Positions 7,108 to 49,420 of a stretch of DNA of 64,000 nt are shown here, piece by piece. Both the position numbers and the translations under genes were made by a program. The stretch lies in the NCBI GenBank assembly GCA_045659745.1, contig JAZRCL010000089.1:2252-66251 (forward strand), in the 5' to 3' direction. Numbering within the stretch: position 1 is the first letter of the stretch; each line of letters begins with the position of its first letter. The stretch comes from Eubacteriales bacterium (GTDB taxonomy: Bacteria; Bacillota; Clostridia; Oscillospirales; CAG-272). The notes beneath the pieces are model-generated. The model saw nothing but the letters and a program-made list of their open reading frames with translations. It searched no databases and was not told the DNA's origin.

Positions 7108-7443
7108 ATAAATGATTTTTTTAGATACTTTTTGTCCGCGTCGACAAAAAGTATCCAAAAAACGCCGCTTAAAAGGGAAGGGTGTTGTAATTTTTCTACC
7201 GAAAAATTTGCTCTGCGAGCATCGAACGACCCCCTTCCCCTTTAAGAATACCCTAACCCCGCGAGTTTGCAAGCAAACTCGAAAAACGGTGAGGTAATAG
7301 AATATCCGTCCTAACTGTAATAAACGTTTACAGAGTAGGCGTTTGTGTAGGATAGGAGTCAAGAGGAAAGGGAGGAATCGCAACCTCCCTTTCCTCTTGT
7401 GGCTTTCTTTGGATACTTTCTGCAGCTATTGGCAGAAAGTATC
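7108..7443 (+). repeat. Multi-hairpin intergenic element, copy A (family shared with 49150-49420)
   Basis: Terminal hairpins lie at 7124-7155 and 7412-7443, both of the form GATACTTT..AAAGTATC. A long hairpin spans 7168-7246, with further hairpins at 7262-7281 and 7360-7399. Copy A shares an identical 22-mer (7188-7209), 20-mer (7370-7389) and 13-mer (7108-7120) with copy B. Confidence 0.7.
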
Positions 7444-7579
7444 ATAAAAGATAGACACTCTCCACTCTTAAGCGGTGTTTTGGTTACGAATTGCATTTCG
7501 CAGAAATGCGAGCTGAAGCGTAGCGCAAGCAGTTGGCACTGTTGACAAAGTAACATAGAAAAAATATTTCAAAAAGCCC

Positions 7580-25833: not shown

Positions 25834-26550
25834 ATGAAAAGGGGAATAAAAAGAATTGCTGTAGTTATACTGATATTGTTTTTGTTAACTGCTGGCTCCA
25901 TAACGGTATTTGCAGAAGACACGGGTTTTTCGACATCGCCTTTATCCGAAGAAAAAGTTGCTGATATCGTTGAGAATGTAAGCATGACAATGTTTACAGA
26001 AGAACCGCCGAAGCGGAATATACATTGTTTTGACGTTGCAGAAGACGGAACCGTTGCTATTGGTTATAGCAATCTAACAAGTAAAACGATATGTGTTTAT
26101 TCGAGTGATGGTGAGTTTAAATATGGCTATAGTTTTCGAAATGCTGGAAATTTCGGGATTGATATAATCGGTGAATTATTATATGTATGTTCTGTTCGTG
26201 GAGGAGTAGCTATTGCAATTAACTTTGACGGCGAAATAGTAGGCGGTGTTGAAATTCACGAAACACGAGAAAATTCAAGATATTGGCAAAACCATATTTT
26301 CGAAGATAAACGAACTGTTGGAGAAAACGAGTATATTTTAAAAAGAAATAATGAGGTTATATATTTTGAATCTGTGGGCTATTCTCAATTAGTTAAAATT
26401 ACGCCAGACGGTGAAGAAATTGTTATACACAACGCAAAAACTCATCAGCTCATATCTACAATATTTATAATTGTTGGTGTGGTTGTTTTTATTGGAACAG
26501 GTATCACTATTGGTCTTCTGAAAATAAATAAAATTAAGAAAAAAACGTAA
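25834..26550 (+). CDS. Hypothetical secreted protein with C-terminal TM anchor (orphan, AT-rich)
   Basis: I chose the start at 25834 (MKRGIKRIAVV...) because it follows the RBS aagggg. It has a signal peptide, a beta-rich middle region and a C-terminal TM helix with a KKK tail. I recognise no motif. Confidence 0.6.
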   Translation: MKRGIKRIAVVILILFLLTAGSITVFAEDTGFSTSPLSEEKVADIVENVSMTMFTEEPPKRNIHCFDVAEDGTVAIGYSNLTSKTICVYSSDGEFKYGYSFRNAGNFGIDIIGELLYVCSVRGGVAIAINFDGEIVGGVEIHETRENSRYWQNHIFEDKRTVGENEYILKRNNEVIYFESVGYSQLVKITPDGEEIVIHNAKTHQLISTIFIIVGVVVFIGTGITIGLLKINKIKKKT

Positions 26551-26613
26551 AATAGTTGGGCAAGTTTTGTTCGTAATACTGTGGTTTAGCGTATAAAAAC
26601 AAAATGCAAAGTT

Positions 26614-26654
26614 AAGGGCTTTTGAAAAATCCGAAAAATTTTTCAAAAGCCCTT
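26614..26654. repeat. Perfect 17-bp hairpin overlapping the -35 of the tRNA promoter
   Basis: aagggcttttgaaaaat (26614-26630) pairs perfectly with atttttcaaaagccctt (26638-26654). The loop is ccgaaaa. Confidence 0.7.
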
Positions 26655-26681
26655 GACAAACGCAATTTTATTTGATATAAT
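26653..26681 (+). promoter_or_regulatory. Sigma-A consensus promoter for tRNA-Thr
   Basis: TTGACA (26653-26658), 17 nt, TATAAT (26676-26681). Confidence 0.7.
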
Positions 26682-26705
26682 ACACGAGTCGTCACAAAGC
26701 GGCAT

Positions 26706-26727
26706 GCTGGTATGGCTCAGTCGGTAG
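26706..26727 (+). pseudogene. Duplicated 5' fragment of tRNA-Thr (acceptor 5' strand plus D arm)
   Basis: The 22 nt gctggtatggctcagtcggtag are identical to 26784-26805. The two copies are separated by a 56-nt insert containing an accacc-ttcg-ggtggt hairpin. Confidence 0.7.
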
Positions 26728-26783
26728 TTTCACCACCTTCGGTGGTTTCGCGCTACCTCGTTGCGCCACACCACTCATACTTC

Positions 26784-26859
26784 GCTGGTATGGCTCAGTC
26801 GGTAGAGCACGTCATTGGTAATGACGAGGTCATCAGTTCGATTCTGATTACCAGCTCCA
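26784..26859 (+). tRNA. tRNA-Thr (anticodon GGU) with encoded CCA
   Basis: I folded the cloverleaf by hand. It has acceptor GCTGGTA/TACCAGC, D arm GCTC..GAGC, anticodon stem CGTCA/TGACG with loop TTGGTAA, T arm ATCAG-TTCGATT-CTGAT, and a discriminator T followed by CCA. Confidence 0.93.
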
Positions 26860-26860
26860 A

Positions 26861-26896
26861 AGCACCTATGCGAATGCGTAGGTGCTTTTGTGTTTA
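26861..26896 (+). terminator. Rho-independent terminator after tRNA-Thr
   Basis: An 11-bp stem agcacctatgc/gcgtaggtgct with loop gaat, followed by ttttgtgttt. Confidence 0.85.
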
Positions 26897-26898
26897 TA

Positions 26899-27114
26899 TA
26901 TGGCTCAGTCGGTAGAGCACGTCATTATACGTTCGCTTCGCTCACTAATCGAGTTTGCTTTGCAAACATCGGGTAAGGACGACATACGTTCGCTGCGCTC
27001 ACTGCCGCGAGTTTGCTACGCAAACGTCGTCATACGTTCCCTCGCTATGCTCGCTCACTGCCGCGAGTTTGCTACGCAAACATCGGTCACAGGTTCGATT
27101 CTGATTACCAGCTC
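26899..27114 (+). pseudogene. Disrupted second tRNA-Thr copy
   Basis: Homology to the intact tRNA runs from position 6 to U33 (tatggctcagtcggtagagcacgtcatt) and resumes at the variable/T arm (ggtcacaggttcgattctgattaccagctc). The 5' acceptor strand is missing and the T stem is mutated. The anticodon region is replaced by 162 nt of tandem repeats. Confidence 0.7.
26927..27088 (+). repeat. Three tandem 48-57-nt hairpin repeats inside the tRNA-Thr pseudogene
   Basis: The units span 26927-26983, 26984-27031 and 27032-27088. Each begins atacgttc and carries gcgagtttgc-N3-gcaaac. The same module (cgagtttgcaagcaaactcg) occurs in element copy A at 7262-7281. Confidence 0.8.
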
Positions 27115-27117
27115 AAA

Positions 27118-27153
27118 AGCACCTATGCAAATGCGTAGGTGCTTTTGTGTTTA
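27118..27153. terminator. Second copy of the tRNA terminator; also positioned to terminate the convergent ylbJ
   Basis: Stem agcacctatgc/gcgtaggtgct with loop aaat, with a T-run downstream on the plus strand and an A-run upstream. Confidence 0.8.
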
Positions 27154-28230
27154 TTTCCTTTTCTGCACCGCCATCGCCAGAAGCGGTAGAGCCGCACTTA
27201 TAAAAAACAAAATGCAGATATAGAGTCCGTAGCTTCCAAATGATATATCGCTCAACGTCGGGGCGGACGGGCTGATGGACACGGAAAAAAATTTAAGCAA
27301 AATAAAACATATAATCGCGCATAATACACCCTGCAAAAGCTTTTGGAGAACAAAGGCTTTTTTTCTTATGTGTCTGCCGCGGTCAAGCGATATTATCTGA
27401 AAAATGACCGATAGTCCCGAAAATCCCGCAAAAAACGCCGCAAGTATGGGCGAAATATTACCGCCAAGCCCTGCCGCGAAGGACATTCCGTTTGATATTT
27501 CAAGCAATCCTGAAAGTATCACGGGTATAATTTTCGGCGCGCCAATTATATCGCACAGGCGGGTAGCGTACCCGATAAGCACCGAGAAAAAGACCACGTA
27601 TCCGCACACCGTCAGCATAACTGCCGCAGACGAGGACACCGCGCCTGTGAATGCATTCACCGCGTCGGTGTTTTTTTGCGATACAAAGATGGCTTTGCGG
27701 TTGTATTTATATATAAACCTACCCGTTATTCCCAAAATGCACGAGGACAAAATAAGCGAGACAAAGAGAATTATTCCAAGACGCGAGCTTTGAAAAAGCA
27801 GTCCCACCGCGCCGCACACAAATGCGGGAGAGGGTATATTGCAAAAGCTCATTATGTGACTAAGCTCGGTGTGGTTTATTTTGTTTTCCTCGTATAGCTT
27901 GAGCGCGCTTTTAGCTCCTATAGGGAAACCGCATAAAAATCCCAGCAAAACCGCAAACGATCCCTCGCGCGACGTGCCGAAAACAAAGCTCAAGGGTCTT
28001 GAAAACAGGGCTTTCAGAATTTTTCCAGTGTCGCTTGAAATCAGAAAATCCGAAATTATCATAAAGGGAAAAAGCGAGGGGACAAGGCTTTGCACGCATA
28101 GTTTGAGCGAGCCCCTCATATACTCAAAGGAAACTGCGGGGGAGATTAGCAACAGCACGAGCAAAAAAAGCACCAATATAGGCAAGGGTGACACCCGTCT
28201 GCCTGTTTTTTTGAGAACTGTTTTTTGCAT
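27151..28230 (-). CDS. ylbJ: Sporulation integral membrane protein YlbJ-like (nucleoside-recognition domain)
   Basis: It is a polytopic protein with an N-terminal block LKLCVQSLVPSLFPFMIISDFLI, as in YlbJ. I chose the start at 28230 (MQKTV) because it follows the RBS aaggtg; the ORF-track start is 28245. Confidence 0.8.
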   Translation of the reverse strand: MQKTVLKKTGRRVSPLPILVLFLLVLLLISPAVSFEYMRGSLKLCVQSLVPSLFPFMIISDFLISSDTGKILKALFSRPLSFVFGTSREGSFAVLLGFLCGFPIGAKSALKLYEENKINHTELSHIMSFCNIPSPAFVCGAVGLLFQSSRLGIILFVSLILSSCILGITGRFIYKYNRKAIFVSQKNTDAVNAFTGAVSSSAAVMLTVCGYVVFFSVLIGYATRLCDIIGAPKIIPVILSGLLEISNGMSFAAGLGGNISPILAAFFAGFSGLSVIFQIISLDRGRHIRKKAFVLQKLLQGVLCAIICFILLKFFSVSISPSAPTLSDISFGSYGLYICILFFISAALPLLAMAVQKRK

Positions 28231-49157: not shown

Positions 49158-49420
49158 TTTTTATGATACTTTGTCAATAGCGACAAAGTATCCAAAACGC
49201 CACTTAGGAAGGGGAGGATGTCCTAATTTTTCTACCGAAAAATTTTTGCTTTGCAAAACGGACGACCCCCTCGCCCTTCCTAAGAACCATCCCCACCCCA
49301 GCGCGCCTTCGGCGCTAAGCGTTTGTGTGGGTGGGTTTCAAAAGGGCGGGAGGAATCGCAACCTCCCCCCCTTTGCGGCGGTTTTTGCTATACTTTTTGG
49401 CGCTGTTGCCAAAAAGTATA
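49150..49420 (+). repeat. Multi-hairpin intergenic element, copy B
   Basis: Terminal hairpins lie at 49165-49192 and 49389-49420. A long hairpin spans 49203-49284, and another lies at 49339-49375. Copy B shares the 13-mer (49150-49162), 22-mer (49224-49245) and 20-mer (49348-49367) with copy A. Confidence 0.7.

Follow-up and report, generated by a model that had tools for sequence, protein, structure and literature searches.

Is the sequence directly behind a tRNA-Thr(GGT) gene of an uncultured ruminant-gut Clostridia genus a scar private to one genome, or is it a recurring element? The question was raised by a stretch of 64,000 nt (the window; positions count from its first letter) from a genome of 1.67 Mb, designated G000. 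A first-pass annotation had described here a second copy of the tRNA gene, destroyed by tandem hairpin repeats. Comparison of the locus with its relatives suggested, with a probability of roughly 0.6, that positions 26899-27147 represent a tandem duplicate of tRNA-Thr(GGT) and its terminator that lacks its 5' end and a promoter, a pseudogene hosting copies of a small non-autonomous structured repeat, which is called the cassette below. The proposed destruction by an event private to this genome was not confirmed, because at least 13 of the genomes sampled from the genus, about half of it, contain a truncated unit with a cassette in the variable loop.

The tRNA-plus-terminator unit was indeed repeated after terminator 1. 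The segment 26899-26926 was identical to 26789-26816 (28 of 28 nt, tRNA positions 6-33), and 27085-27154 was 93% identical to 26828-26897, a segment covering the variable loop, the T arm, the acceptor 3' strand and the terminator. As had been described before, the homology of the second copy ran to U33, the first five bases of the acceptor stem (its 5' strand) were gone, the T stem (ACAGG/CTGAT) was unable to pair, and the 3' end was CAA, not CCA. The live gene was the single tRNA called in the window, by ARAGORN, by the Rfam tRNA model and by ARAGORN with intron search at normal thresholds; an intron-containing tRNA, the possibility left to be checked by the first-pass annotation, was not called. 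Apart from tRNA, no Rfam match was obtained between 26400 and 27400, even at E values up to 10. Scanning of 26550-27250 revealed the perfect sigma-70-type promoter of the live gene as the sole promoter-like site; none was found ahead of the pseudo-tRNA unit, and terminator 1 lies directly upstream of it.

The insert in the second copy is built of hairpin units, as the first-pass annotation had recognized: all three units open with ATACGTTC, and each contains the hairpin CGAGTTTGC-NNN-GCAAAC-N-TCG. Its statement that the anticodon and the 3' strand of the anticodon stem gave way to 162 nt had to be corrected, since GGTAA-GGACG survives, displaced, at 26972-26981; the string around it, GGTAAGGACGAC, reads exactly as in the units of G031, G030 and G036. 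The resulting layout is tRNA positions 6-33, cassette 1, GGT-AA-GGACG-AC, cassette 2, TC, cassette 3 and the remainder of the tRNA, with cassettes of ∼46-54 nt (Table 1). Because GGTAAGGACGAC is intact, it was deduced that cassette 1 was inserted between U33 and G34, and cassettes 2 and 3 in the variable region. The linker and loop of cassette 1 read CACTAATCGAG...TTT, and those of cassettes 2 and 3 read CACTGCCGCGAG...TAC; cassette 1 is akin to a subtype dispersed in relatives, CACTAACCGAG. The difference at this diagnostic linker and loop is better explained by a separate insertion than by local tandem copying, and the 45 nt on which this is judged give an indication that cassette 1 may be an insertion separate from cassettes 2 and 3. 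Owing to indels between the units, the array was missed by Tandem Repeats Finder. The whole 162-nt insert had no second copy in G000 by a strict regular expression and blastn-short, which returned nothing beyond 15-nt matches. The 266-nt region folded far better than its shuffles (z = -4.46).

Table 1. Positions of the features of the tRNA-Thr locus and of the related palindrome in the window
Feature	Position	Strand	Basis
sigma-70-type promoter, TTGACA-17-TATAAT, of the tRNA-Thr transcription unit	26653..26681	+	promoter scan
leader: exact 22-nt copy of the tRNA 5' end (26706-26727), then 56 nt containing a UUCG-capped hairpin	26706..26783	+	sequence
functional tRNA-Thr(GGT)	26784..26859	+	ARAGORN, Rfam
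intrinsic terminator 1	26859..26888	+	terminator scan
pseudo-tRNA 5' part: tRNA positions 6-33 (D arm, 5' anticodon stem, U32, U33)	26899..26926	+	repeat comparison
cassette 1, between U33 and G34: head ATACGTTCGCTTCGCTCACT, hairpin CGAGTTTGC-TTT-GCAAAC-A-TCG; 65.5 bits	26927..26971	+	covariance model, relatives' units (G031)
displaced rest of the anticodon arm, GGTAAGGACGAC: GGT anticodon, A37, A38, 3' stem GGACG, AC	26972..26983	+	junction as in single-cassette relatives
cassette 2, at the variable-loop position common to the genus; 65.9 bits	26984..27029	+	covariance model
cassette 3, tandem to cassette 2, region between the TACGTTC and GCTCACT half-motifs expanded; 52.9 bits	27032..27085	+	covariance model
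pseudo-tRNA 3' part: variable-loop remnant, T arm with broken stem, acceptor 3' strand, CAA	27085..27116	+	repeat comparison
intrinsic terminator 2, copy of terminator 1	27114..27147	+	terminator scan
perfect palindrome CGAGTTTGC-AA-GCAAACTCG, same arms as the cassette hairpin	7262..7281	.	element comparison

The locus was compared with 60 relatives by DNA search, in which the query span 132-325, which starts in the tRNA, includes the terminator and reaches the first cassette, was matched in many species of the genus. One to three truncated units stood right behind tRNA-Thr(GGT) in the unit-bearing genomes, usually with one cassette in the variable loop. Unit-bearing loci came from at least 12 genomes other than G000 (L002, L003, L007-L014, L020, L024 and L037), and one to three units after the tRNA-Thr(GGT) terminator were seen in G031, G021, G009, G030, G028, G016, G035, G017, G012, G015 and G036. 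The typical unit of a relative comprises the D arm, the anticodon arm (usually with a GGT loop), one cassette, the T arm, the acceptor 3' strand, CCA and the species' own terminator; its junctions read, in succession, ...CACGTCATT GGTAA(G/T)GACGAC, NTACGTTCGC...TCG and GGTCATCAG. At each of these loci ARAGORN called the first gene alone. Of 38 genomes from the genus, 24 were matched by a covariance model of the cassette; no match came from 13 other genera of its family, and a single weak one was obtained among 250 genomes from the order. A metagenome scan with the junction specific to G000 yielded no match, and the generic junction added one more relative (L221). By counts taken from short-read metagenome-assembled genomes (MAGs), most units hold one cassette and the locus of G000 holds 2+1; G006 has at least four, up to a contig break, and one unit of G021 has at least seven, with an assembly gap.

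Within each genome, the tRNA-like parts and the terminator of the unit were near-identical to those of the live gene, and between species they differed, the terminator stems with compensatory changes. This combination indicates concerted evolution (gene conversion) or repeated re-duplication. The anticodon loops of the units read TTGGTAA, CCCGGTAA, TGGTAA, TAGTAA or TTGGCAA, and the T loops were mutated (TTGAATT) or half of the T stem was deleted; judged from these sequences, the tRNA-like parts of the unit are not constrained as a tRNA. The 5' limit of the tRNA homology was found at position 6, 10, 17 or 19, depending on the species, and degenerate leader and acceptor remnants were still visible in G012 and G015, which suggested that the tandem copy of the gene was complete at first and has been decaying from the 5' side. 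One close relative, G011, is syntenic on both sides, with a promoter and leader 95% identical to those of G000 and the same downstream gene, and carries an unrelated sequence of ∼165 nt in place of the unit. The lack of the unit despite this synteny implied that the spot behind tRNA-Thr is a turnover hot-spot.

The cassette itself consists of a 19-nt head, TACGTTCGCTNCGCTCACT, and, after it, a hairpin of 9 bp that contains a single bulge. The architecture common to 23 diverse aligned copies was NTACGT, a variable middle, TCACT, 2-4 nt, CGAGTTT(T)GC, a loop, GCAAA(A)C, the bulged base and TCG; the variable middle was either TCGCTNCGC or a true stem-loop (GCCGAC/GTCGGC, GCGC/GCGC or GTAAACCG/CGGTTTAC). 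Across 50 distinct copies, in an alignment fitted to the model, 99.8% of the cells of the bulged hairpin were paired, compared with 30-45% in slid controls. Compensatory double changes were observed in five of the nine pairs (19 cells), and none of 500 shuffles reached the observed values. Even an extra T in the 5' arm was matched by an extra A in the 3' arm (GTTTGC/GCAAAC versus GTTTTGC/GCAAAAC). On these counts, which do not tell RNA from single-stranded DNA, the fold of the cassette clearly appears to be selected.

Cassettes were not confined to the tRNA-Thr locus. It was found by the covariance model that G000 contains five full cassettes in all, including two more on contig C69, which are located behind tRNA-Trp and again beside an empty sister unit. 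Contig C17 of the same genome carries a shortened, inverted cassette behind tRNA-Arg(ACG), antisense to that tRNA. Weaker yet clear model matches were obtained on other contigs of relatives (12 in G030, 11 in G016 and 10 in G035). The contexts of 20 dispersed copies comprised pseudo-tRNA arrays, copies resembling miniature inverted-repeat transposable elements (MITEs) and other intergenic copies. In the pseudo-tRNA arrays behind other tRNA genes the cassettes occupy the T-arm 3' strand, next to sister units that are empty, as in the L074 array, where an empty GGTTCAGATTCCCGGATGGG stands beside a filled GGTTCAGATTC[48 nt]CGGATGGG. The MITE-like copies (L080-L086) are framed by the inverted repeats cttaaaacc.../gggttttaag; the tRNA-nested cassettes have neither terminal inverted repeats nor a target duplication. 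The two ends of the insert are always NTACG...TCG(C), and such constant ends without target duplication argue for precise insertion and against random scarring. The mobility that had been suspected for these modules would have to be read from filled and empty sites only; no transposase or nuclease partner was found.

The proposed tie between the insert and an element near 7.1 kb was also upheld. The hairpin recurs as CGAGTTTGCAAGCAAACTCG at 7262-7281, where it is a fixed part of a repeat of ∼330 nt present in 10 copies in G000, with the palindrome CGAGTTTGC-NN-GCAAACTCG as its constant module. This element contains about five hairpins, is framed by GATACTTTCTG...CAGAAAGTATC hairpins and has no Rfam match; copies lie at ∼7120-7450 and ∼49160-49420 of the window and on contigs C38, C58, C60, C66, C74, C92 and C101. 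One could still suppose that the insert is a private product of random decay which resembles 7262-7281 by chance. The direct match of the insert to 7259-7270 is just 12 nt, which taken alone is at chance level, and no second complete copy of the 162 nt exists in the assembly. However, the 9-mer arm CGAGTTTGC occurs 49 times in G000 against ∼13 expected (four-fold), about half of them in hairpins, and in a Treponema MAG (L111) a 20-mer identical to 7262-7281 directly follows the same 19-nt head. The excess of the 9-mer, its fixed place in the 10-copy element and the co-occurrence in Treponema together indicated that the link is real. With the module found in that element, in the two C69 cassettes and in Treponema, and with the unit recurring in the genus, chance decay can be regarded as refuted; the empty inventory of the 162-nt insert, which by itself would favour chance, is outweighed by the results of the covariance model.

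The head reaches far beyond the genus. Searches of species-representative genomes with TACGTTCGCTNCGCTCACT gave more than 120 stretches among the matches listed, compared with 17 for the reversed control, which corresponds to the chance expectation. The head is thus enriched at least seven-fold over the reversed control in many bacterial and archaeal phyla, where it lies within lineage-specific repeats (L101-L220). Matches were found in Burkholderiales (including the complete genome of Piscinibacter sakaiensis 201-F6), Planctomycetota, Poribacteria, Eremiobacterota, Acidobacteriaceae, Prevotella, Muribaculaceae, Treponema, Pseudidiomarina, Hyphomicrobiales, KSB1, Myxococcales, the candidate phyla radiation, Halobaculum and nanoarchaea. 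With up to two mismatches allowed, genomes of Burkholderiales, Eremiobacterota, Prevotella and Pseudidiomarina contained 17-21 copies each, and the reversed control 0-2. The sequences flanking the head are particular to each lineage; a hairpin of the kind seen in the cassette comes after it in Treponema and in one unclassified bacterium. Its two 9-mers, ACGTTCGCT and NCGCTCACT, differ at every third base only, an arrangement with a chance probability of ∼0.04. The 9-nt period was seen to run on into the flanks in many lineages (..CTCAC TACGTTCGC TNCGCTCAC TNCGCTC..).

Outside the genus, no association of the head with tRNA genes was detected at 30 loci, and within 1.2 kb of 120 loci no convincing shared neighbour protein family was found, the clusters being GC-rich spurious open reading frames (ORFs). 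Rfam 15 gave nothing over the head in other phyla (18 loci at the gathering score, 8 at E up to 5), and plasmid and phage collections contained no copies of either cassette or head. It was also considered that the head might be a constant loop inside lineage-specific stems; this was rejected, since enclosing pairs were no commoner than at random positions of the same loci. No published description of the cassette or the head was found by searching the literature for sequence words only, and general literature on tRNA pseudogene repeats offered nothing relevant. In a Nanoarchaeia MAG (L108) the head is spelt by T36, A37 and the first bases of what looks, by eye, like an intron at 37/38 of a tRNA-Thr(CGU); no tRNA was called there by ARAGORN in bacterial mode or by the Rfam tRNA model at the gathering score. 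The ∼165-nt replacement in G011 (L026) contains GGAGATTTCTC-GGTAAGC-TCGAAATGAC between the tRNA-Thr terminator and the conserved downstream flank, and repeats of Planctomycetota (L112, L118 and L126) read CAGATTTCTCCAC-[19-mer]-CCGGTCGAAATGAC, which, to judge from the letters, looks like the same hairpin frame without and with the head motif.

On the preferred reading, that of a tRNA-Thr pseudogene hosting a small non-autonomous structured repeat, tRNA-Thr(GGT) and its terminator would have been duplicated in tandem, and the copy would have decayed from its 5' end while conversion held its sequence close to that of the live gene. The cassette may have arrived by precise insertion through a trans-acting activity, or by template switching at hairpins. 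Expansion could then have occurred by slipped-strand or unequal recombination, and a second, independent cassette of slightly different subtype would have been inserted in the anticodon loop. The unit would yield no usable tRNA and would be transcribed at most by read-through of the terminator.

Several observations weigh against this reading. The covariation of the hairpin implies selection on the fold, not neutral junk. The mean pairwise identity between species was 0.81 for the cassette, 0.74 for the terminator and 0.43 for the spacer, so that the cassette is the best-conserved part outside the tRNA. For streamlined genomes of 1.6-2 Mb it is unusual that at least 13 of those sampled have kept a pseudogene. 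The enrichment of the head across phyla is not explained by a selfish repeat at the level of a genus. Candidate partner enzymes did not fit either. In eight genomes of the genus the clear GIY-YIG matches lay in UvrC-sized ORFs of 419-670 aa and no clear small gene was found, with one borderline match (G016:C74, 22.7 bits) in a 247-aa ORF. The Y1 transposase of the RAYT/IS200 type (Y1_Tnp, PF01797) was present in 17 of the 38 genomes; its presence does not track the cassette, and it was absent from the cassette-rich G000, G030, G035, G028, G017, G021, G006, G012 and G036.

The same conservation could mean that the unit is a functional non-coding RNA, in which a tRNA-Thr scaffold (elbow, T arm, 3' end and terminator) would display the cassettes as a platform or sponge, their number tuning its capacity as in RNAs of the CsrB type; alternatively, the cassettes could act as a folded single-stranded DNA site. 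A cassette better conserved than the terminator, strong compensatory covariation with a matched base-pair insertion, the retention of the unit in the genus, the terminator that each unit has of its own, the favourable fold of the 266-nt region and the 17-21 heads per genome in other phyla would all be consistent with such a role. Nevertheless, the unit has no promoter and a strong terminator directly upstream, its anticodon loop, T loop, T stem and CCA decay differently in each species, the close syntenic relative G011 lacks it, the C17 cassette is antisense to its tRNA, and no Rfam family covers it. We therefore consider a functional RNA or single-stranded DNA site, the chief alternative, possible and on the unlikely side. 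A more far-reaching proposal, which we hold to be doubtful, takes the cross-phylum distribution of the head as its starting point: the head would be the recognition site of a widespread trans-acting factor (a nuclease, recombinase or RNA-binding protein acting on folded RNA or single-stranded DNA), and the tRNA-Thr-derived units would be selected carriers presenting it in a tRNA-like fold, so that it would constitute a new class of cross-phylum cis-element and not lineage-specific junk.

Another origin of the duplicate might be serial site-specific integration and excision at an attachment (att) site in tRNA-Thr, leaving a miniature scar like those of cis-mobilizable elements (CIMEs), with the cassette as the remnant of an element end. 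Such a scar would suit the turnover hot-spot behind tRNA-Thr and the further partial 3' tRNA copies in G000, since a terminator, a partial 3' copy and a second terminator also follow Pro(TGG), Leu(TAG) and Arg(CCG), and partial copies with terminators follow Trp. However, the duplicate spans the species-specific terminator of the host and tRNA positions 6-76, which is more than an att core, and the cassette lies within the tRNA copy, in its variable and anticodon loops, not between att copies. No integrase was noticed among the ORFs read beside the locus, where no systematic search was made, and compensatory changes in the hairpin are unexpected for a dead remnant. An integration scar thus seems improbable. 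Two further ideas were rejected: a T-box decoy or mimic of uncharged tRNA, since the units show free variation in both their anticodon loops and their 3' ends, and a small ORF spanning the cassette, since indels break the frame and start codons are lacking in most copies.

Some features of the surrounding tRNA genes were recorded in addition. The 78-nt leader of the live gene is a conserved module comprising the 22-nt copy of the tRNA 5' end, the UUCG-capped hairpin and a stretch that could base-pair with the 5' strand of the tRNA. The same 78-nt leader was found upstream of tRNA-Thr(CGT) in relatives (L027, L029, L033 and L038), the 5' copy matching its own tRNA each time, and G017 carries it twice in tandem. 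The last bases of the leader, CCACTCATAMWTTC, also close two tandem 43-nt 5'-decoy units before tRNA-Leu(TAG) on contig C30 of G000. At their other end, many tRNA genes of G000 have, in this order, a terminator, a short insert with structure, the T arm and acceptor 3' end in copy, and another terminator. Such tRNA-tail units were seen on C90 (6620-6740), C30 (10112-10230), C78 (4120-4250), C69 (8700-9040) and C22 (1890-2100), and those that follow Pro(TGG) and Leu(TAG) have the string CACCGAGCTWCGCGAGGTGAGAGTTC in common.

REP, BOX, NTS and other small hairpin repeats counted for a long time as junk, and several of them later turned out to be handles for RAYT transposases or Ssn nucleases. The cassette is a recurring repeat for which no description was found, not a one-off scar. 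It is unusual in nesting at defined positions of tRNA-shaped scaffolds, in keeping its hairpin by compensation while the pseudo-tRNA around it decays, and in a head that is enriched across phyla. If a partner exists, the tRNA-Thr locus offers a natural series for finding it, with 0, 1, 2, 3, at least 4 and at least 7 cassettes; if there is none, the locus is still a clear case of a live tRNA gene and the dead copy beside it evolving in concert. In practical terms, units of this kind mislead the annotation of tRNA genes and interrupt assemblies made from short reads.

BOX elements of Streptococcus pneumoniae have the composition boxA-boxB(n)-boxC, and RUP and SPRITE are similar modular intergenic repeats. 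Like BOX, the present repeats are short non-coding hairpin modules, one of which varies in tandem number, with modules shared between composites and no encoded transposase. The BOX-like repertoire suggested by the first-pass annotation amounts to a likeness in behaviour: it is modular, the number of cassettes in tandem differs between loci (1, 2+1, at least 4 and at least 7), and the hairpin module is shared with the ∼330-nt element. Membership of the BOX family is not indicated; there is no sequence relation and there are no A and C end modules; unlike BOX, the cassette is nested in tRNA-derived scaffolds behind tRNA genes, and its head recurs far outside the genus.

The cassette also resembles the REP/BIME/REPIN repeats associated with RAYT (Y1 HUH) in having an oriented conserved head beside an imperfect palindrome, an extragenic and clustered distribution, and compensatory evolution of the stem. 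It differs from them in that its 19-mer head, TACGTTCGCTNCGCTCACT, is not GTAG, that it forms direct tandems instead of inverted doublets, that its copy number is low (∼5 in G000 and ∼12 in G030), and that cassette-rich genomes lack Y1_Tnp. Another system has been described by Chenal et al. (2025, PMC11893778), in which NTS/SRM repeats are linked with Ssn, the GIY-YIG single-strand DNA nucleases. As in those repeats (PMC11893778), an oriented conserved flank is joined to a hairpin and spread over many phyla. Unlike in the Ssn/SRM system, where such a gene usually has the repeats on its flanks, there is no clear small single-domain GIY-YIG (cd10448) gene in the eight genomes of the genus, and the one cassette junction compared by eye, with no systematic scan made, is off the SRM pattern HGTCWY....

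With bacterial tRNA pseudogenes, att duplications and CIMEs, finally, the unit shares the truncated copy of a neighbouring tRNA with its terminator, the 3' hot-spot and the concerted evolution. Unlike known tRNA pseudogenes, it carries a conserved, covarying insert at defined loop positions and has been retained in at least 13 sampled genomes.

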